DNA of 64,000 nucleotides, taken from Vicinamibacterales bacterium. Lineage in GTDB: Bacteria; Acidobacteriota; Vicinamibacteria; Vicinamibacterales; 2-12-FULL-66-21. The translations under genes were made by a program, and so were the position numbers. The DNA lies in assembly GCA_036496585.1 (NCBI GenBank), contig DASXLB010000037.1, positions 3,497 to 67,496 of the forward strand, in the 5' to 3' direction. Below, piece by piece: positions 2,623 to 12,803 of the stretch. The notes below the pieces were generated by a model. The model made no database searches, was not told the origin of the DNA, and was given only the letters and a program-made list of their open reading frames with translations. Numbering within the stretch: position 1 is the first letter of the stretch; every line of letters begins with the position of its first letter.

Positions 2623-5241
2623 TTAAAACCCAATGCGCATACCGACGTCGATCTTCCGTGCGGGCCCGGCGGACGTCGGCTGCAGGAAGAACGGCGAGGT
2701 CATCACGCCCGAATAGCCGGTCAGGTTCGCGCGATTGAGCAGATTCGCGGCCGAGATGTACAGCTCGAAGCGCACGTGCTTGTCGTCGGCTCCCCCGCCG
2801 GCGAGACCGCCGAGCAGGTCGCCGGCGCTGCCGCCGCCGCCGGCTTGACGGACCACGACGACCTGCTGCCCGCCGCCTGCCGCCTGCGTGCGGCTGCCGA
2901 AGCCGAATGCGTAGGTCAGCCGTCCCGCCACGTCCCATGCGCCGGCCGTCGTCGCCGTGTTGCGGCCGATTCCTGCCGGTCGATCGGTGAACGCCGTATC
3001 GCCGTTGTCGTCGCGGCCGCTGGTGATCGTGTAGGGCAGTCCCGATCGCGCCAGCGTTGACAGACCGAGCCGGAGATGGGCGGTCAGGTTCGTGCTGAGC
3101 GCGGCGCTCGCCGTGTGACGCGGCACGCCGGTGGCTCGAGCCCACTCGGCCGCCAGATCGTAGTTGTCGGCCGGCAGCGAGAACGGCCCATCGGCGTCAT
3201 TGCGCTGATCAGTCCACGCGTAGTTGGCGAAGAGGAACAGCCGCCGCGCCGGCAGGTTCCAGTTGAGTCCGACGTTGACGGCATCCGCCTCGAGCTTCCC
3301 GGTCGACTCGACCTCCGTCACGGTGCCGAGCGACGGATCCGGCCTGATCCCGTCGAGGGGAGCGTTGACGTTGCGGCCCCGGAAGCGATCGCGGGCACGG
3401 CGATGGCTGTAGCTGGCGTTGACGTTCAGCGCCGATGTCAGCTGCTGCGTCACGGCGAGCAGCCCGACCGTCTGCGCGGGCATCACCAGGCCGCTCGCCA
3501 GTCCATATCGGCTGGACGGCAGCACCTGCTGCTCGGCGCCACCCCCCAACGGATCCGGATACCCCGGATTGACGATGACGAGATCCTGCTGGTGGACGCC
3601 GTCGACGCGCAGCGTCTGCTCGTAGGTGTCGGCGTCGAGCCAGTCGTAGAAGACGCCGCCGCCGGCCCGTACGGTCGTCCGGCCGCTCTTGAACGGCGAC
3701 CAGGTGGCGCCGCCGCGCGGACCGAGATTCAGGCGATCGCCGAGGTGGGTCTGCAGTTCCTGGCGCAGGCCGGCGCTGAGGGTCAGGTTCTTGCGGGCCC
3801 GCCAGTCGTCCTGCGCGTAGAGTCCCGCCTGCCACATCGAGTAGACCACCAGCGGATCGCCGAATCGCCGCGTGTAGTTCGACGGCTGGCCGGCGTCATA
3901 GTCGGCGAGGCTGCTGAACGTGAAGGTGCCGATGTAGCCAGAGCGGGCGTTGCTGGTGTAGGACCCGCCGTTGACGAGCGCGCCGAGGCGAATCGCGTGT
4001 GCCTTGCGCGCGTAGTCGATGTCGCTCGCGAGTTCGACCTCCGTGCTCCTGCGGCCGCCGTCCTGCTGCGCGCCGCCGGCCGTGAAGGCGTCGAGCACCT
4101 GCACGGTCGGCGCTTGAACGGCTGGAATCGCGTTACCCGTCGCGCGGCGGACCTGGGCGCGCGTGGTTGCGAACCAGTACTTCGAGATCGGTCCGTTCTC
4201 GGAGACTCGCAGCATGCTCTCCGAGTCGGTGCGCGTATAGGCGCGCTCCTTCAAGTCGTAGCCGCCGACGCCGAGGTTCTCCTGCGTCCCGTCCGTGTGC
4301 TGGAACGAGCCGCGCAGCGAGTGGGACGGGCTGAGCGCGTGATCGATTCGGAGACTGGCGTTGGCGCGCGACGAAGGGCGCCGCACCGAGGAGGTCAGCG
4401 TGTCGTCGCCGGGAACGGCCGCGAAGACGTTGGCCGCGTCGAAAGCCGAGGCGCCGCCGCCCGCGAACGAGAACGACGTCCGCCCCTTCAACAGGGTGCC
4501 GCTCAGGTTGGCGTTGTACTGCTGGCTCTGCTCGGGCGTTTTTTGCGGTTGAAACGCGTTGCGCGCGTTCAAGGCATCGTCGCGGAACGTCATGTCGAGG
4601 CCGCCGCGCAGCGGTCCGAGTCCTGGCTGAGTGACGATATCGATGAACGTGTGGCCGGCGCTGTGATTCTCGGCCGCGAACATCGCCTGCGAGAAGCGGA
4701 TCGAGCGAATCTGTGACTTCGGCGGCAGCTTGCCGCCGCGGAATCCGTCGACGCGGAGCAGCGCGCCTGGTCCGGCCATCTGCTTCAGCGCCGTCTCCAT
4801 CTCGTCGGGATCGTCTGGCAGCGCGTCGATCTGCGCTTTCGACAACACGTTACTGAAGCGGTCGCTGCGCGGGTCGGACGCGGCTGTGGCGGCGTCGCGG
4901 CCGACCGAGACAGTCTGCGCGATCTTCTCGATCGCCAGCACCGCCTCGCGGCGGTTGTCGCCGGCGCGGACTCGCACGTCGGCCAGGGTTCGCGCTTCGA
5001 ATCCGGGGAACTCGACGACGACGGTGCAGCGTCCGGAGGGGACCGTCAGCGTCGCCACTCCCTGGGCGTCCGACGTGGCGGCGATCGCCATGCCGTCGGC
5101 GGCGACGGCTCGCACCGCGGCGTTCGGGATGACGGCGCCGCTCGGATCCTTGACGACAATGTGGAGCGTCCCGGTCACCTGAGCGGTGGCCGCGGCGGGC
5201 CAGAGCGCGACGCCGGCAAGCACGGCGAGGAGGAGGCGCAC
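2623..5241 (-). CDS. TonB-dependent-receptor-like outer-membrane beta-barrel with N-terminal carboxypeptidase-regulatory-like domain
   Basis: Signal peptide; GTLHIVVKDPSGAVIPNAAV N-domain; AGLYAQDDWRARKNLTLSAGLR and NLGPRGGATWSP barrel motifs; terminal Phe (GMRIGF). Confidence 0.85.
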   Translation of the reverse strand: MRLLLAVLAGVALWPAAATAQVTGTLHIVVKDPSGAVIPNAAVRAVAADGMAIAATSDAQGVATLTVPSGRCTVVVEFPGFEARTLADVRVRAGDNRREAVLAIEKIAQTVSVGRDAATAASDPRSDRFSNVLSKAQIDALPDDPDEMETALKQMAGPGALLRVDGFRGGKLPPKSQIRSIRFSQAMFAAENHSAGHTFIDIVTQPGLGPLRGGLDMTFRDDALNARNAFQPQKTPEQSQQYNANLSGTLLKGRTSFSFAGGGASAFDAANVFAAVPGDDTLTSSVRRPSSRANASLRIDHALSPSHSLRGSFQHTDGTQENLGVGGYDLKERAYTRTDSESMLRVSENGPISKYWFATTRAQVRRATGNAIPAVQAPTVQVLDAFTAGGAQQDGGRRSTEVELASDIDYARKAHAIRLGALVNGGSYTSNARSGYIGTFTFSSLADYDAGQPSNYTRRFGDPLVVYSMWQAGLYAQDDWRARKNLTLSAGLRQELQTHLGDRLNLGPRGGATWSPFKSGRTTVRAGGGVFYDWLDADTYEQTLRVDGVHQQDLVIVNPGYPDPLGGGAEQQVLPSSRYGLASGLVMPAQTVGLLAVTQQLTSALNVNASYSHRRARDRFRGRNVNAPLDGIRPDPSLGTVTEVESTGKLEADAVNVGLNWNLPARRLFLFANYAWTDQRNDADGPFSLPADNYDLAAEWARATGVPRHTASAALSTNLTAHLRLGLSTLARSGLPYTITSGRDDNGDTAFTDRPAGIGRNTATTAGAWDVAGRLTYAFGFGSRTQAAGGGQQVVVVRQAGGGGSAGDLLGGLAGGGADDKHVRFELYISAANLLNRANLTGYSGVMTSPFFLQPTSAGPARKIDVGMRIGF

Positions 5242-5250
5242 GCGCTCCTC

Positions 5251-6204
5251 CTAGCTGCCGCTGTCGACGGCGAACGTCTTCGCGTCGATCTTCGGGTTGA
5301 ACTTGATCTTGGAGACCGTCCATTCCTCGATCGTGGTGCCGCCCATCGCGCGGCGCATCCTGAACGGGAACCGCACGCCGTCGGCGTCCCGCCACTCTTC
5401 GAAGTAGAGCGTATAGTCCGCCATCACCGGCTCCTCGCGCTGCGCGTCCAGCGGCTGTCTGCCGGCATCGCCGCTCGCGACCATCGCGTGGCCGCCGGCC
5501 GGCGCCATCGCGTTCGAGGTCACGACGCGGGGCTGCGGCGCCTTATAGCTGATCATCAGCGGCAGGTTCGTCTCCTCGTCCACGAAGAGCCGCGCCGCCA
5601 GTCCGTCGCCGTTGTGCACTTCGACGACCCAGGCCTTGCCCTCGACCGATTCCGCTTCGCCGAGATAGCCGTAGTCGGCGTGTGCCGCGGGGTGCGCCAT
5701 CGCAAACCAGCCGAGCATCAACCGCGACGCCTCGAGGCGTGCGCTACGGAGCGCCACCTGGGTCATCTGCTGCCGCTGCTCCGGCGTCGGTTTCTCGGTC
5801 GGGCCGCCCGGCATCGGTCCGCCGCCGCCCATGCGGATGACCAGGCCGCCGGCCGCGCCGCCGGCGGCGACGTTCTGCAGCGGGCGATCGCCGTTGAATC
5901 CGGTGGCGCCGCCGCCCGATAGCAGGACCGCGCCGCCGCGCGTGCTTTCGACGCGCGCGTACTTGTCCGGAAGCTCGAGGTAGATCTCGACGTCGGAATC
6001 GAGCTGGATGCTGCCGACGTTGCGCTGCACGGAAGATTGCAGCGCGAACGTCTTCAGCGCGTCGATGCGGCCGCCGCCGATCGCCTTGCGCGTACGGGTG
6101 AGAACCTCGGCGGCCTTGCTGGCCTCCTGTGCGAGATAGACGACGGGCTGCGCGAAGGCAATGGCCGCGGCGCAGCCGACACTGGCGAGAACGCGATACT
6201 GCAT
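5251..6204 (-). CDS. Exported hypothetical protein, possibly LolA-like beta fold
   Basis: Signal peptide; beta-rich segments EIYLELPDKYARVE, ARLFVDEETNLPLMISY, TLYFEEWRDADGVRFPFRM; lies 9 bp upstream of the receptor gene. Confidence 0.65.
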   Translation of the reverse strand: MQYRVLASVGCAAAIAFAQPVVYLAQEASKAAEVLTRTRKAIGGGRIDALKTFALQSSVQRNVGSIQLDSDVEIYLELPDKYARVESTRGGAVLLSGGGATGFNGDRPLQNVAAGGAAGGLVIRMGGGGPMPGGPTEKPTPEQRQQMTQVALRSARLEASRLMLGWFAMAHPAAHADYGYLGEAESVEGKAWVVEVHNGDGLAARLFVDEETNLPLMISYKAPQPRVVTSNAMAPAGGHAMVASGDAGRQPLDAQREEPVMADYTLYFEEWRDADGVRFPFRMRRAMGGTTIEEWTVSKIKFNPKIDAKTFAVDSGS

Positions 6205-6260
6205 GTGTGTGACCTCTCGTGACGAGACGAGTCATCATCGCGGTCCTGCCGGCGCAGGTG

Positions 6261-6288
6261 GTTAAGGTGACGCTAAGAGATTGTTAAG
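6261..6288. promoter_or_regulatory. Three G(T/C)TAAG hexamers at 11-bp spacing; putative OmpR/PhoB-family binding site
   Basis: GTTAAG 6261, GCTAAG 6272, GTTAAG 6283; an OmpR-family regulator gene lies at 12123. Confidence 0.5.
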
Positions 6289-6304
6289 GACGTAAAACCT
6301 TGCG
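6281..6304 (+). repeat. 24-bp direct repeat, left copy (TTGTTAAGGACGTAAAACCTTGCG)
   Basis: Exact match to 10057-10080. Confidence 0.95.
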
Positions 6305-6457
6305 GCGACGGGATTTCGTCGAATGGGTGTTCCGTCAACAACACAGATGCGTAACGATCGGCGCGCTGGATTCAAGCGAGGGAAATCGTCCGCCGATTCC
6401 GCATGTACAGGTATTCGCTGAACCTGAGCGGAAGGCCGCGCCGGCAGGAGCACACCC

Positions 6458-9400
6458 ATGACGACACTCGCCAAAGTCCGATGCTTCGTAGTGGACCGCA
6501 CAAAGGGCACACCGGTCCCGGGCATCGCGGTCGGGCTTGGCACGATGACCGACGCCGGCGACCTCGTCCTGCTCAGCATCCTGTCTTCGGACCGCGTGGG
6601 ATACCTGTCCTTCGACGTGACCCGTTTTGCCGCGCTGCTGGCTGACAGCCGGCTCTGGCTCTGGCCGCTCCTCGATACCGCCAATCGTCTGTCGGCCTCA
6701 CCCCGCGCCGGCGGGGTGTCGCCCGGCAGTGTTCCGCCGCGAGACAACGACAACGTCCCTCCGGGGTTGTCCGATGGCGGAGATTCTCCGTGCGTCCCCG
6801 TGGTGCTGAGCGTGGATGGACGGACGGGCGCCGACGCCTGTGACGTCGCCACCTGGCCGTCGATCCAGAATCCAGATTCGTGTGACTACCAGCAGTCGCC
6901 GGGATCGTTCGTCACCAGACCGCGGAAGATGCTGGGGGACGACTGCTGCGAGACGCTCCTGCCGAGCACGCTCCCCAGCCAGAGCCTCACATTCCGTCGC
7001 GTGATCACTCGGGGGATCGATGTCTCGACCCTCTCGACAGGTACCGCACCGGCCGGCAGCGGTCACACCACCACGGTGGCGCCTCCGCCCCCGCACATCT
7101 CACCGATAGACGTGACGGCCCTGCCGATCGCTCCTCCGGTATCTGGCTTCGCGTACGGCGAAATCCTGGACTATCGACAGGAGTGGTACTCGCTGGGTCA
7201 CTCCCTGGGAGACATCCGCTACAGCCTGGCACTCGCGCCGGGCGAGGCGGTGGAGATCGCCGTTGTCGATTGGTCGCGGCAGGACCAGGTCTCGCGCACC
7301 GACGACATCACCTCCCGCGAATACCTCGCCAATCAGCTGGTGCGGGACCGATCGATCGGCGAAACCGTCGATTCCATGCTCAACGAGAGCCAGGATGGAT
7401 GGTCGCTGATGGGGGGCACCGCTGGTGCGGCCAGCTACAGCTACGGCACGTTCTCCATCGCGGCCGACCACTCCGTCGGCGGATCCATCGCGCACACGTC
7501 GGGCACGCGCAACATCGAAGCCGACTCCCTGCAATCGCTCCACGACCAGACCGGTCAGGCCACGGCCGTCGTTCGCACGCTGAACTCCACCGTGGTGATG
7601 CAGTCGACGCAAGCCGAGCAGAACGTCGTGCAGACGCGTCGGGTGGCGAATCACAATCATTGCCATGCGCTGACGATCGAGTACTACGAAGTCTTGAAGC
7701 ACTTCCGCCTTCGCACGACCTTCACGGGCCGCCGCGCGGCGATCCTGCTCCCGTTCGTGCCGTTTCAGTTCGACTGGAGCCTCGCACTGAGGTTCCAGTC
7801 CGCCCTCGTGCCAGCCCTGCTCGACGCGTCGCTGGCGAGCGCCTTCGATGCCATCTCGCGCTATCACCTTGGGAGCGCGTTGTATGCCGCCGCCACCGCC
7901 AGCACTGTCCACGCCGCGACGCCGGGGTCGACCGCGACCACGCAGTACTTCACGGGACAGAAGAGCGTGGCCGTGGCGGCTGCGAGTGCCAACGATCCGA
8001 GTCTGTACCTGCAGAAAGGCTCGCGCGTGCGGATGACCGCCAGCGGCAAGGTGGGCATCGGGGAACTGGTCGACACCAGCGGCGGCTACGATGCCGACGG
8101 CAACGGCCAGTCCGCCGACAACGGCTGGTATGCGCCAGGGAAGTTCGAGTACTCGCTCATCTGTCGCGTGGGAAGCACGTGGTACCAGGGTGGCACGTCT
8201 ACAGAGTTCGTCGCGTCGGACGATGGCTATCTGACGCTACAGGCCAACGACCACGTCGGGAACTTGAGCGACAACAGCGGCAGCTGGGCGGTCGACGTGA
8301 ATGTCATCGCACCGCAATCCTCACCCGGCGACTCGGTGCCCGCCGTGCCGGACCCGACGGCTCCTCCCGCGGCCTTTACCAAGGACGGAGACGCCTACGC
8401 CGAGAGCCTCTTGCTTCGGCACCTGAACGGCAATCGCGGGTACTACAACCGGGTGGTGTGGCTGGCGCTGGATGATTCTGATCGCCGCCTCTATCTTGAC
8501 GCGGCCCTCGCCGGCGTGCCGGGAATGTCGGCCCAGGTCGACTCGTATCCCCTCGCGGTGTCGGGCAACAGCGTGGCCTTTGGCTTTGACGGACAGACGC
8601 CGTTGTGGTCTGACACGCGCCCCACGGATCCGACGGCGCCCATCGAGACCATCGTCACGCTCCCCACCCGCGGCGTGTTCGCGGAGGCCATGCTGGGACA
8701 CTGCAACGCCTGCGAGCCGCGCGACATCACTCGCATGTGGGACTGGTCGATCATGACCACCGAGGAACCGCCCGCCATCAGTGATGTGACACCGGGCCCG
8801 CGCGGTACGCCGGACACCGTCGCTCCAGGTTCGTTGCCCCAGAACGTCGTCCAGATTTCGCAGCCGCCGGCGGCTCCTGACCCGACCGGTCTGGCGGCCG
8901 CGCTTCGCGTGCTCGGCACGCCGAACGTCTTCCGTGACATGTCAGGTCTGAGCGAGGTCAGCAGTCTGCTGGGCACGCTGGCAAACGGGGCGGTCACCTC
9001 GCTCTCGGGCGCCCAGAAGATCGCGCAGCAGGCGCAGCAGAAGGTGCAGGCTATCCAATCTGGGTCAGCCGGCGGCGCCGGCACATCGACCGGCACCCGA
9101 CCGACGGCCGCTCAAACGTACGACAACCTCACGGCGGCCAAGGAAATCGCCAAGAATGCCGGAACCCTGGGTTGGGATCCGCAAACGACCGCCGAGGTGA
9201 CGAAGGCGGTTGTCATGGGCGATGGGAACCCCGACATCGTCCAGACCGGCGGCGCCGGAGCCAGTGTTGGCGTTGCGGCAGCCCTCGACCTGACAATCAA
9301 GACCGGCGAGGCCGTTGGCAAGCTCCTGGTGCCGTCTGGCGCCATCACGGTCAGCGGCTTCGAGAGCGGACAGTCGCTGCTGGCCGGCGCCTCGGATCCC

Positions 9401-9973
9401 GGGATGTACGTAGACGACGACACCTCCACCATCGAGTTCACCTTCATCGATCTGGGCGCGTCACGGTGGAGTCTGGGAAACACTCCGCCGGGCGGACTCA
9501 ATGGAACCGTCAGGGTCAGTTGGGTGAACTGCGTCCCCAACATTCAAAAACTGCCCTCGACTATGGTCCCCACAAGTCGGGACGACTACATGTCCTTCGT
9601 GAGGATTGTTGGCAACATGGAATTCAAGCGGCAGATCGGGACCTTGGAATACTCCGGCTTCGTGCTGTCACCGACAGACGCGCTCGACAGCGCCGCGGTC
9701 ACGTTCGAACTGATGTCTGAAGCGTGGCCGATTGGCAGCGAGGTTCCGACGCCAAAGGAGTCCCATGCGACGGTCCGACTGACGATTCAGTACGCGCGCA
9801 AGACTCTCCTTGGCGGCGAGATCGTCGGTCCGACCGCCAAGACGTTCCCGCTCATCTCGCCAAAGAACGGCGGGCCGTCGCGGTACTACATTTCCAATCA
9901 GTCGGGCACCAGCGACGTGACGAGCATCGTGGTGACGCCGATGGACCCGGGCGGCACGGTTACGACTCTGTAG
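6458..9973 (+). CDS. 1171-aa modular protein with internal LecA/PA-IL-like lectin domain; candidate toxin or pore-forming protein
   Basis: Long ORF with RBS (AGGAG) before ATG 6458; lectin-like segment LTLQANDHVGNLSDNSGSWAVDV; Ser/Gly-rich segment; Cys/His motifs ANHNHCHAL and LGHCNACE; no obvious signal peptide. Confidence 0.8.
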   Translation: MTTLAKVRCFVVDRTKGTPVPGIAVGLGTMTDAGDLVLLSILSSDRVGYLSFDVTRFAALLADSRLWLWPLLDTANRLSASPRAGGVSPGSVPPRDNDNVPPGLSDGGDSPCVPVVLSVDGRTGADACDVATWPSIQNPDSCDYQQSPGSFVTRPRKMLGDDCCETLLPSTLPSQSLTFRRVITRGIDVSTLSTGTAPAGSGHTTTVAPPPPHISPIDVTALPIAPPVSGFAYGEILDYRQEWYSLGHSLGDIRYSLALAPGEAVEIAVVDWSRQDQVSRTDDITSREYLANQLVRDRSIGETVDSMLNESQDGWSLMGGTAGAASYSYGTFSIAADHSVGGSIAHTSGTRNIEADSLQSLHDQTGQATAVVRTLNSTVVMQSTQAEQNVVQTRRVANHNHCHALTIEYYEVLKHFRLRTTFTGRRAAILLPFVPFQFDWSLALRFQSALVPALLDASLASAFDAISRYHLGSALYAAATASTVHAATPGSTATTQYFTGQKSVAVAAASANDPSLYLQKGSRVRMTASGKVGIGELVDTSGGYDADGNGQSADNGWYAPGKFEYSLICRVGSTWYQGGTSTEFVASDDGYLTLQANDHVGNLSDNSGSWAVDVNVIAPQSSPGDSVPAVPDPTAPPAAFTKDGDAYAESLLLRHLNGNRGYYNRVVWLALDDSDRRLYLDAALAGVPGMSAQVDSYPLAVSGNSVAFGFDGQTPLWSDTRPTDPTAPIETIVTLPTRGVFAEAMLGHCNACEPRDITRMWDWSIMTTEEPPAISDVTPGPRGTPDTVAPGSLPQNVVQISQPPAAPDPTGLAAALRVLGTPNVFRDMSGLSEVSSLLGTLANGAVTSLSGAQKIAQQAQQKVQAIQSGSAGGAGTSTGTRPTAAQTYDNLTAAKEIAKNAGTLGWDPQTTAEVTKAVVMGDGNPDIVQTGGAGASVGVAAALDLTIKTGEAVGKLLVPSGAITVSGFESGQSLLAGASDPGMYVDDDTSTIEFTFIDLGASRWSLGNTPPGGLNGTVRVSWVNCVPNIQKLPSTMVPTSRDDYMSFVRIVGNMEFKRQIGTLEYSGFVLSPTDALDSAAVTFELMSEAWPIGSEVPTPKESHATVRLTIQYARKTLLGGEIVGPTAKTFPLISPKNGGPSRYYISNQSGTSDVTSIVVTPMDPGGTVTTL

Positions 9974-10056
9974 CAGGCCCACGACGTGAACCCGCACATT
10001 TGACCTGCCACGACTTCACGGGCTCTCCCCGGACCGCAAGACCGCAGGGAGAGAGT

Positions 10057-10080
10057 TTGTTAAGGACGTAAAACCTTGCG
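10057..10080 (+). repeat. 24-bp direct repeat, right copy
   Basis: Exact match to 6281-6304. Confidence 0.95.
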
Positions 10081-10123
10081 TCCGAGGCCGAACCGGCGAA
10101 ATCCGCATGCTACGATTTCGCGC

Positions 10124-12076
10124 ATGCCTCGACGCCGGTGGCTGCCGATGTTCGCGCTGGCTGTCGGTCTGTTCGGACTGATCGTCCTGCTGGCGACGCT
10201 GCAGTATCGATGGCTCGGACAGATCAGCGCGGCCGAGCGCACCCGCGTGAGCGCGATGCTGCGCGACAGCGCGTCGGCGTTCGCCGCCGACTTCGATCGC
10301 GAGCTCAATCGCGCCTACCTGCTGTTCCAGATCGTGCCCGCCGCGGCCGGCGACAACCTGGCCACGCAGGTCGGCTCGCGCTACGACCGCTGGATGGCGA
10401 CCTCGCTGTATCCGCGGGTGGTGCGTGACGTCTATCTCTACGTGCCGTCTTCTTCGGGCGGCACGCTGCAGCGGTTCAATCCGGCGACGCGCTTTCTCGA
10501 GCCCGCCGAGTGGCCGGCGTCGCTTGCGCCCGTGCATGCGCGCCTCGGCGCGGCCGCGCCGCACCCGGCCGGCGGCCCGCCCGCGATCGTTCGCGCGGCG
10601 CCGGCGCTCTGGCCCGACATTCCGGCGCTGGTCGTCACGGCACCGATGGTCCTGGTCGACCGGCGCACGCCAGGCGGCAACGACCTCGCGATCCCGATGC
10701 AGCCCGCGTATTGCCTGCTGCTGCTCGACAGCGGCTACATCCGCGGCGAGATGCTGCCGGCGCTGGCCCGGCAGCACTTCCGGGGTCCGAGCGGCGGCTT
10801 CGACTACGAGCTTGCGGTCGTGCCGGCCACCGGCCGCGGCGTCGTCTACCATTCCGTCGACACGTTCAATCCCGAGCCGGCCGCCAGAGCGGATGCGTCG
10901 GCGGACCTGTTCCATCTACGCGTGCAGGATTTCGAGCCGCTGGTATCGGAGATCAGCCGGTTCGCGGTGTTCTCGACGCAGGCGGCGCCGGCGCTGCACG
11001 GCGATCTGACGGCGCGCACGGAGACGGTGTTCAGGCACACGGTCGGCCAGCCGCTCGATCCGCAGCGTGGCGGCGGCATGTCGATCGTCGTCCGGAAGAA
11101 TGGCGGCGACGAGATGACCACCACCGTGACCGACGAGTCGGGGGAACCGAACGCGAGGTTCGCGATCTCGACGGCGGCGCATTGGCGGCTGCTGGTGCGG
11201 CATCCGTCGGGATCGCTCGAACTGGCGGTCGACCGCGCGCGGCGGCGCAACCTCCTGATCAGTACCGGCATCCTCGGCCTGCTGGCGGTGAGCGTGGGCT
11301 TCCTCGTCGTCTCGACGCGGCGTGCGCACGATCTCGCGAGGCAGCAGCTCGAGTTCGTCGCGACGGTGTCGCACGAGCTGCGCACGCCGCTGGCGGTGAT
11401 TCGCTCCGCCGCAGACAACCTCGCTGACGGTGTGGTCGGCGACGAAGCGCGCGTCCGGCAGTACGGACAACTCGTGCGCCGGGAAGGCATACGGCTGACC
11501 ACGCTCGTCGAGCAGATCCTGGAGTTCGCCGGCCTGCAGTCGGGCCAGCGCGCGATCACGCGCCAGCCGCTTGCCGTGGACGCGCTGCTGCAGCAGGCGA
11601 TCGAGGAACTGAAGCCGGCCGCGTCCGCCGCGGTGACGCGGGTCGAGCTGTCGATCGCCGACGACCTGCCCGCCGTGTGTGGAGACGAGGCGGCGCTGCG
11701 GCGCGTCTTCGTGAATCTGATCAGCAATGCCATCAAGTACGGCGCGTCGGCGCGGTGGGTCGGCGTCCGAGCGCGGCCTACGGGTGACGGCGTCGAAGTC
11801 GCCGTGACCGACCGAGGCATCGGTATCGGGGCCGACGAGCAGGATCGGATCTTCGAGCCGTTCTATCGCGCGCCCGCAGTGGTCGCGGCGCAGGTGCAGG
11901 GAGCCGGCCTCGGGCTCAGCCTGGTGAAGCGAATCGTCGAGGCGCATGGCGGCGTCATTTCGGTGGAGAGCGCGCCCGGCCACGGCACCACCTTCACGGT
12001 GAAGCTGCCGGCTGACCGCGGTGACCTGTCGGCGAGCGAAACCAGTGTCGGCGCAGCCGCGCCACAACACTCGTGA
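10124..12076 (+). CDS. Membrane sensor histidine kinase
   Basis: Two TM segments; H-box FVATVSHELRTPL; N-box NLISNAIKY; DRGIGI; GAGLGLSLVKRIVEAHGG. Confidence 0.95.
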   Translation: MPRRRWLPMFALAVGLFGLIVLLATLQYRWLGQISAAERTRVSAMLRDSASAFAADFDRELNRAYLLFQIVPAAAGDNLATQVGSRYDRWMATSLYPRVVRDVYLYVPSSSGGTLQRFNPATRFLEPAEWPASLAPVHARLGAAAPHPAGGPPAIVRAAPALWPDIPALVVTAPMVLVDRRTPGGNDLAIPMQPAYCLLLLDSGYIRGEMLPALARQHFRGPSGGFDYELAVVPATGRGVVYHSVDTFNPEPAARADASADLFHLRVQDFEPLVSEISRFAVFSTQAAPALHGDLTARTETVFRHTVGQPLDPQRGGGMSIVVRKNGGDEMTTTVTDESGEPNARFAISTAAHWRLLVRHPSGSLELAVDRARRRNLLISTGILGLLAVSVGFLVVSTRRAHDLARQQLEFVATVSHELRTPLAVIRSAADNLADGVVGDEARVRQYGQLVRREGIRLTTLVEQILEFAGLQSGQRAITRQPLAVDALLQQAIEELKPAASAAVTRVELSIADDLPAVCGDEAALRRVFVNLISNAIKYGASARWVGVRARPTGDGVEVAVTDRGIGIGADEQDRIFEPFYRAPAVVAAQVQGAGLGLSLVKRIVEAHGGVISVESAPGHGTTFTVKLPADRGDLSASETSVGAAAPQHS

Positions 12077-12122
12077 TGCTGCCTAGCAAGGCGTGCGCCG
12101 GCGCGAGGACCGCCGTAAATTG

Positions 12123-12803
12123 ATGCAGCGAATTCTCCTGATCGAGGACGAAGCCGGCCTGGTCCTGACCCTGACCGATCGGCTGACCTGCGAGGGATAC
12201 GCGGTCGAGAGCGCCACCGACGGCGAGCGCGGCCTCGAGCGTGCGATCCGCGAACCGTTCGATCTGCTGATCCTCGACGTCATGTTGCCTCGGATGGGCG
12301 GCTTCGACGTGTGCCGTGAGCTGCGGCGGCGCGGCATCGACACACCCGTCCTCATGCTCACCGCGCGCGGTCAGGTGGTCGACAAAGTGGTCGGGTTGAA
12401 GCTCGGCGCCGACGACTACATGACGAAACCGTTCGAGATGGCCGAGCTCCTCGCCCGTCTCGAAGCGCGCCTGCGGCGGGCGCCGGCGACGCTGCATCCG
12501 GTCGACGGCTACGCGTTCGGCGATCTGCGCGTCGACTTCCGCAAGGCGGAAGCGGAGCGCGACGGCGTGCAGCTCGATCTCTCGGCGCGTGAATTCCAGC
12601 TGCTGCGCTACTTCGTCGAGCATCGCGGCGCGACGTTGACGCGCGACGAGCTGCTGAACGAAGTATGGGGCTACAACGCCATGCCATCGACCCGCACCGT
12701 CGACGTGCACGTCGCCTGGCTCCGGCAGAAAATCGAACCGAATCCTCGCCACCCGCAGTTCATATTGACGGTGCACGGCATGGGCTACCGGTTCGCGGGG
12801 TAA
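12123..12803 (+). CDS. OmpR/PhoB-family response regulator
   Basis: ILLIEDE, LILDVMLP, GADDYMTKPF, winged-helix RTVDVHVAWLRQKIE...ILTVHGMGYRF. Confidence 0.95.
   Translation: MQRILLIEDEAGLVLTLTDRLTCEGYAVESATDGERGLERAIREPFDLLILDVMLPRMGGFDVCRELRRRGIDTPVLMLTARGQVVDKVVGLKLGADDYMTKPFEMAELLARLEARLRRAPATLHPVDGYAFGDLRVDFRKAEAERDGVQLDLSAREFQLLRYFVEHRGATLTRDELLNEVWGYNAMPSTRTVDVHVAWLRQKIEPNPRHPQFILTVHGMGYRFAG

Follow-up and report, generated by a model that had tools for sequence, protein, structure and literature searches.

A predicted two-component operator, probably duplicated around a one-off foreign gene insertion, in a Vicinamibacterales bacterium

Introduction

An exact 24-bp direct repeat, TTGTTAAGGACGTAAAACCTTGCG, encloses a single gene for a 1171-aa protein in the genome of a Vicinamibacterales bacterium. 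The window, that is, the whole stretch of DNA that was analysed, comprises 64,000 nucleotides and corresponds to positions 3497-67496 of contig C37 (DASXLB010000037.1) in an assembly of 5.33 Mb (GCA_036496585.1; genome G000). Comparison with related genomes predicts that the repeated block is part of the operator of the two-component system encoded beside it, and the whole arrangement is best explained, with a probability of roughly 0.7, as the duplication of operator sequence around a one-off insertion of foreign DNA. The insertion, the duplication, the conservation of the block across the order, its phased spacing to the kinase promoter and the absence of mobility features are the direct results of this comparison.

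Both ingredients belong to known kinds, namely an operator of the OmpR family and a horizontally acquired gene inserted in a promoter, and no new kind of mobile element is revealed. What is new, in a modest scope, is the predicted operator and leaderless-promoter architecture for Vicinamibacterales, and the duplication of a binding site in a way that preserves a promoter across an insertion. The Vicinamibacterales are an abundant and almost uncultured soil lineage, for which we know of no described regulatory sites; here, comparison by itself defines a strongly conserved operator and promoter architecture for one of their two-component systems. The locus also provides a natural example of a horizontally acquired gene landing in a regulatory region without destroying the promoter, where, through the duplication of one site for a regulator dimer, an operator adjoins the old promoter and the new gene alike.

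The Repeat Pair

The 24-mer is found exactly at positions 6281-6304 (copy 1) and 10057-10080 (copy 2) of the window, in both cases on the + strand, as had been claimed in a sequence-only reading of this DNA. None of 100 dinucleotide-preserving shuffles gave a 24-mer match. The whole 5.33-Mb genome contains these two copies only, allowing up to three mismatches, and the further copies flanking other cargo for which that reading had proposed to look do not exist in this genome. A longer repeat of 29 bp with one mismatch had also been described. It is present in the window (6276-6304 against 10052-10080, 28 of 29 positions identical), but the left extension of copy 2 (10052-10056) is polymorphic within the species, being AGAGT or, in two near-identical strains (loci L091 and L092, 99.75-99.8% identical), AGCGT; because of this polymorphism only the 24-mer is robust, and the extended version is unstable. 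The copies enclose only the open reading frame (ORF) of 1171 codons (6458-9973) and short flanks of 153 nt on the 5′ side and 83 nt on the 3′ side, again as first described.

A misassembly at the repeat, which had been named as a possible refutation, does not account for the arrangement. The same junctions are present in Logan contigs from SRR11835574 and SRR11835809 and in JGI contigs from 3300036801 and 3300036806, at 99.75-99.98% identity (JGI contig L090 contains the left junction). Since these four further assemblies, from four samples, span one or both junctions, the arrangement is no assembly artefact, and the site is filled in all five assemblies available at 99.75% identity or more. 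The scan of positions 5800-10600 against Rfam gave no match, and the repeat is therefore not part of a known RNA. The limits of the duplication were also examined on its right side, where the local alignment of 6305-6470 with 10081-10150 (including the shared TCCGCATG) is equalled in score by 297 of 3000 random genome segments; as this is no better than random, the −10 region of the kinase promoter lies outside the duplication.

The Single-Copy Site in Relatives

About 340 relatives were searched in total: the 24-mer was used for 41 genomes, and the 19-mer core TTGTTAAGGACGTAAAACC for 301 genomes belonging to the order. The core is found with at most two mismatches in 44 of the 301 order genomes, while control matches occur in 4 genomes only, and nearly every positive genome has a single match. 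An exact scan of one genome per species, covering 185,579 species, returned 34 loci, almost all of them in Vicinamibacterales or other Acidobacteriota; about 4 chance matches are expected from the size of this database, and 2-3 of the matches are non-acidobacterial.

The orthologous place was recognised in 47 distinct regions, each with a single copy of the core between a divergent operon for a 317-aa protein (p317) and an outer-membrane protein (OMP) and an operon for a sensor kinase and an OmpR-type response regulator. The empty site with one copy, whose existence in related genomes had been proposed as a check, is thus found. Alignment of the intergenic regions shows that copy 1 retains the ancestral left flank, with hexamers 1 and 2 of the operator described below and the p317 gene, and that copy 2, which has hexamers 3 and 4 only, retains the ancestral right flank with the core promoter of the kinase. 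When the flanks of the window are joined across one 24-mer (empty-site junction …GCTAAGAGA + 24-mer + TCCGAGGCC…; the corresponding circle junction would be …GGGAGAGAGT + 24-mer + GCGACGGGATT…), the alignment with the single-copy regions extends over their full length. Because the joined flanks match these orthologous regions, the 3752 bp between the copies are an insertion around which 24 bp are duplicated.

The few genomes with two matches have their copies at unrelated loci, or contain strain variants binned together. The latter is the case of the metagenome-assembled genome (MAG) JBOGIX01, which was considered as a second two-copy genome and rejected: two of its contigs (loci L069 and L077) contain one and the same single-copy locus, in two strain variants that differ slightly.

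Only one other insertion was seen among approximately 60 orthologous loci, and at a different point, the kinase start. It is a group II intron of about 2 kb in a MAG of another member of the Vicinamibacterales (CAWIKP010000018.1, locus L083, approximately 3866-5866 in motif orientation), whose ORF contains RVT_1 and GIIM domains; the intron lies between the conserved −10 element TGCTAGACT and the start codon of the kinase, with ACCAATG at both ends.

The Predicted Operator and the Kinase Promoter

The full ancestral operator is retained at positions 6259-6299 (+ strand) of the window, where it reads TGGTTAAG gtgac GCTAAG agatt GTTAAG gac GTAAAA CC. It consists of four tandem hexamers starting at 6261, 6272, 6283, and 6292, that is, with spacings of 11, 11, and 9 nt. 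The array GTTAAG-N5-GCWAAG-N5-GTTAAG-N3-GTAAAA is conserved in the orthologous regions, and the consensus block, obtained from the 45 of the 47 unique regions that have a recognisable extended −10 element, is TgGTTAAgc..gcGCaAAGAG.TTGTTAAGGACGTAAAACCt, in which the 19-mer core is almost invariant. The 24-mer takes in hexamers 3 and 4, the promoter-proximal half of the array, with a further 2 nt to the left of hexamer 3 and 7 nt to the right of hexamer 4, and because it spans these two hexamers it would carry one dimer site.

On the kinase side, an extended −10 element, TGCTACGAT, is situated at 10108-10116 (+ strand), 32 nt past the core of copy 2, and the ATG of the kinase at 10124 comes 7 nt after its hexamer. 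This geometry is shared by the relatives. Of the 45 loci, 37 have a spacer of 32-35 nt between the core and the extended −10 element (TGnTAnnnT, which is TGCTAGACT in 35 of the 45) and the remaining 8 have one of 43-45 nt, and no locus falls between; the two classes lie one helical turn apart, which is the signature of an activator site that must keep its face of the helix. Such a site would be centred near −58. In 42 of the 45 orthologous loci the start codon of the kinase is found 6-7 nt past the −10 hexamer, a distance so short that a leaderless mRNA is predicted for the kinase, and for the kinase-regulator operon throughout the order.

Three features expected of an operator of the OmpR/PhoB type thus come together at this locus: a tandem period of about 10-11 bp, a phased position relative to the promoter, and a co-conserved regulator. 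The repeated block is accordingly best described as the predicted operator of the adjacent two-component system, conserved order-wide, and the adjacent response regulator would be the protein that binds the hexamers. With this, the suggestion that the 24-mer is the core of an attachment (att) site gives way to another identity, since the 24-mer appears to be the best-conserved portion of a cis-regulatory element that extends across the order. Its location in a promoter, already recognised by the sequence-only reading, is confirmed and can be specified: it sits in a divergent control region, phased to the extended −10 element of the kinase. The same reading had allowed that the 24-mer might simply be a recurring operator, and this is what the comparison points to.

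The distribution of the hexamers follows the neighbouring genes. In two genomes in which the kinase operon does not adjoin p317 (G020 and G041) only the core is kept upstream of the kinase, and at a locus where p317 is present and the kinase is absent (L041) all four hexamers are kept. In genome G020 (loci L009, L033, and L055), three tandem palindromic GGGGTCTGACCCC units take the place of hexamers 1 and 2, 45 nt left of the core, where the kinase operon no longer adjoins p317; they have the look of repetitive extragenic palindromic (REP) elements.

Additional sites with the same architecture adjoin other genes for putatively secreted proteins (in genomes G023 and G058 and in family f9). The genome under study itself has a third and weaker operator-like site, TTGTTAAGAACGTAAAAAG, on the minus strand of contig C38 (16505-16520), 47 nt upstream of a gene for a 607-aa secreted protein that has a tandem paralogue; the second site of G058 adjoins a similar gene of 615 aa. 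The two sites together suggest a small envelope regulon.

The Inserted DNA and Its Gene

The inserted DNA (6305-10056, + strand) consists of 3752 bp of unique sequence, with the 153-nt 5′ region, the cargo ORF and the 83-nt 3′ region, in which there is a weak hairpin. No counterpart was found in any of the orthologous intergenic regions examined, nor a second copy or fragment elsewhere in the genome. Its GC content, 65.3%, corresponds to the 7th percentile of 3.7-kb windows of the genome, its tetranucleotide distance from the genome to the 98.7th percentile, and its third codon positions have a GC content of 82%, where the genes beside it have 86-90%. A search for the cargo protein gave no match in any of the ten same-genus genomes covered (10 of 10) or in 107 of the 111 same-family genomes, where the one real homologue, in genome G115, is 40% identical. 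The absence from the same-genus genomes, together with the atypical composition, identifies the insert as a lineage-specific foreign insertion.

The cargo gene (6458-9973, + strand) encodes a protein of 1171 aa belonging to an unnamed family with a patchy distribution across phyla. Apart from the protein itself, the best homologues among 5.8 billion database proteins are 59-60% identical. The family (P0003-P0121) is large and comprises proteins of 1100-1400 aa from several phyla which share a conserved central region, and it has no PDB, PHROGs, PADLOC, or NCBIfam match and no Pfam match above threshold. Its members carry extra, swappable domains: GH25 muramidase, amidase, DUF4056, LecA/PA-IL, NlpC/P60-like, CBM5/12, and peptidoglycan (PG)-binding. 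This architecture is polymorphic-toxin-like or cell-wall-targeting. In the present protein, a LecA/PA-IL-like lectin domain at residues ~504-615 is weakly supported (a Pfam PA-IL match that, with E = 0.005, does not reach the threshold of that family), and PF07828 is present in relatives. The small ORFs upstream of the homologues at loci L053 and L054 were considered as conserved partner genes and rejected, as they differ between the two loci and are absent from the genome under study.

The Neighbouring Genes

To the left of the operator, the divergent operon begins with p317 (5251-6204, − strand), whose start is located 56 nt from hexamer 1. The protein has no Pfam or NCBIfam match and thus belongs to no recognised family; its N-terminus is signal-peptide-like. 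Orthologues with 26-57% identity occupy the same divergent position in most relatives. The second gene (2623-5241, − strand) encodes an outer-membrane beta-barrel protein of 872 aa with the Pfam domains CarboxypepD_reg and OMP_b-brl_4, for which syntenic orthologues of 41-72% identity are found left of the motif, also in most relatives.

To the right, the sensor histidine kinase (10124-12076, + strand; HisKA and HATPase_c) is followed by the response regulator of the OmpR/PhoB family (12093-12803, + strand; Response_reg and Trans_reg_C), the presumed binder of the operator. The kinase orthologues of the relatives, with 34-55% identity, begin 68-100 nt to the right of the motif, and the regulator comes next. 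Wherever the motif adjoins the kinase, the regulator orthologues mostly have 70-84% identity across the order, a level far above that of the kinase and p317, which fits a conserved DNA-binding specificity. Every NCBIfam equivalog score of the regulator lies below its cut-off, and no orthology to PmrA or to any named equivalog is indicated.

Origin of the Duplication

In the preferred reconstruction, the ancestral state would have been a four-hexamer operator in a control region shared by the divergently oriented p317/OMP and kinase/regulator operons. In the lineage of this species, 3.75 kb of foreign DNA with one gene was then inserted between the operator and the extended −10 element of the kinase, and the 24 bp of the insertion point, whose half-sites 3 and 4 would suffice for a single dimer of the regulator, now flank the insert on both sides. 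The left copy would still serve the divergent p317 promoter and now also lies 154 nt upstream of the new gene, and the right copy keeps the ancestral spacing of 32 nt to the kinase −10. Because copy 2 keeps this spacing, with the ATG 7 nt after the −10 hexamer, the kinase-regulator promoter, which is presumed to be autoregulated and leaderless, appears to have survived the insertion. Without the duplication, the operator would lie 3.75 kb away from the promoter of the kinase.

The duplication most likely arose in a one-off event, either by end-joining capture at a staggered break or by recombination across short operator homology. By the first route, foreign DNA would be joined into a staggered break whose ends are filled in; two Ku homologues are encoded in the genome. 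By the second, circular incoming DNA would enter through a single crossover within an operator copy, so that the insert has an operator copy on either side. With both routes, the observed product is the one that selection would favour if it acted to keep the kinase-regulator promoter intact.

Several points weigh against this reconstruction. To our knowledge, there is no documented one-step bacterial mechanism that gives a 24-bp duplication around a gene-sized insert. The identity of the operator and the use of the promoter are predictions from comparison, and since the core varies less than many operators do, it may have an additional or different role, for example as the site of another factor or in the 5′ leader of p317. 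On the side of the newcomer, no TGnTAnnnT is present at either phased distance after copy 1, a sigma-70 scan of positions 5900-10400 found no promoter for the cargo, and a scan for intrinsic terminators was likewise empty. Since both a phased −10 element and a consensus promoter are missing, the indications that the operator may control the cargo are weak.

A particular form of the recombination route, of the Campbell type, supposes an incoming circle from a related bacterium in which an operator already stood ahead of the cargo, so that hybrid copies would result on both sides. The operator is near-identical across the order and would therefore offer portable homology, extra operator copies do stand at other genes in other genomes, and the A/T difference left of the 24-mer, together with the AGAG/AGCG polymorphism, would fit a left flank derived from the donor. 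No such donor was found, however: none of the cargo homologues examined has an upstream motif, although the upstream sequence is short in two of the loci, and the 40% identical homologue of G115 has no motif within 8 kb. Moreover, 24-29 bp of homology is at the lower limit for RecA-dependent recombination. This history is consequently considered unlikely.

An excisable cassette was the other origin to be weighed. It would be a non-autonomous integrative element, with the 24-mer as att core, a tyrosine or serine recombinase acting in trans and, as the excised form, a 3776-bp circle that could enter the conserved site again. A single gene between exact direct repeats, relatives with the empty site and cargo that looks foreign are what such an element would leave, and about ten tyrosine recombinases and one serine recombinase are encoded on other contigs of the genome. 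Against it, the conservation of the repeated sequence is explained by its role in a promoter and its phased spacing to the −10 element. The dyads within the 24-mer reach 4 bp at most (AAGG/CCTT, ACGT, and TTAA), so that the inverted arms of a recombinase-type core are missing. A profile search of contig C37 with Phage_integrase, Resolvase, rve, and DDE_Tnp_1 had no match, in agreement with the earlier statement that the window contains no integrase; such genes occur on other contigs only, and no recombinase stands beside the third operator-like site on C38 either. Terminal inverted repeats were looked for in the insert and not found. Neither the genome itself nor the approximately 340 order genomes contain a second pair of nearby motif copies with cargo between them, and among the approximately 60 orthologous loci no other element occupies this point, the group II intron being situated elsewhere. 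The cargo homologues at other loci (L016, L052, L053, L054, and G115/L051) have no flanking repeats and no motif, apart from two 11-mer direct matches at L054 that are at chance level, and the five near-identical assemblies are filled without exception. The excisable cassette is for these reasons quite improbable, and the 24-mer is very probably not an att site at which a cassette is still mobile.

A broader idea is that the operator doubles as an integration site, at which genes are captured, and possibly excised, through a recombinase acting in trans or through the portable homology of the operator. If this were true, acquired genes would be wired into the two-component regulon in the insertion step itself, but it is held to be very improbable. 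Hardly credible at all is a two-copy state with the gene as the ancestral condition: the gene could easily be lost by deletion between the direct repeats, with the single copy seen in relatives as the outcome, but many independent losses would be needed to produce it in 47 distinct regions from many genera and families, the cargo is absent from all ten same-genus genomes and atypical in composition, and the variant in which the arrangement is an assembly artefact is excluded by the four independent assemblies.

Comparison with Known Systems

The insertion resembles several kinds of mobile DNA in part. With integron cassettes it shares a single gene that looks promoter-less, and the boundary GTTAAGG agrees with GTTRRRY at six of seven positions. 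It differs from them in its 3′ region: neither the inverse core RYYYAAC nor GTTRRRY was found in 9974-10080, an attC-like imperfect palindrome is missing, and the 3′ hairpin does not surpass those of shuffled sequence in stability. As in cis-mobilizable elements (CIMEs) and in the integrative mobile elements exploiting XerCD/dif (IMEX), cargo without an integrase lies between direct repeats of 20-30 bp, which bound the element and of which one copy is present at the empty site. Unlike those elements, the repeat has no recombinase-type dyad or core, is not dif-like and not derived from a tRNA, no other cargo was found between two copies of it in the genomes searched, no recombinase is encoded on contig C37, and no related autonomous element is found at the site in relatives.

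With the target-site duplications of transposons the locus has in common that direct repeats of host sequence abut the insert and that relatives are single-copy. Target duplications of bacterial insertion sequences (IS) and transposons typically measure 2-14 bp, and 24 bp is beyond this range. Neither terminal inverted repeats, a transposase, multiple copies nor a short target-site duplication were found here, and the insert consists of one gene of unrelated function.

The closest likeness is that of the repeated block to the operators of OmpR-family regulators. The PmrA box has been defined as CTTAAG-N5-xTTAAT (PMC3973317), and head-to-tail binding to tandem half-sites is described for regulators of the OmpR/PhoB family (PMC4660055). 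On its bottom strand, the present operator contains CTTAAC-N5-CTTWGC-N5-CTTAAC, and thus has, as the PmrA box, tandem direct hexamers separated by gaps of 5 bp (an 11-bp period) with CTTAAx half-sites. It differs from the PmrA box in being a predicted site with four hexamers, the last pair of which is separated by N3 instead of N5, and in its position, with a predicted centre near −58 of an extended −10 promoter whose transcript would be leaderless. As is usual for OmpR/PhoB operators, it is found in the promoter of what would be its cognate two-component operon and of a divergent operon for envelope proteins, with a regulator of the OmpR family encoded next to it.

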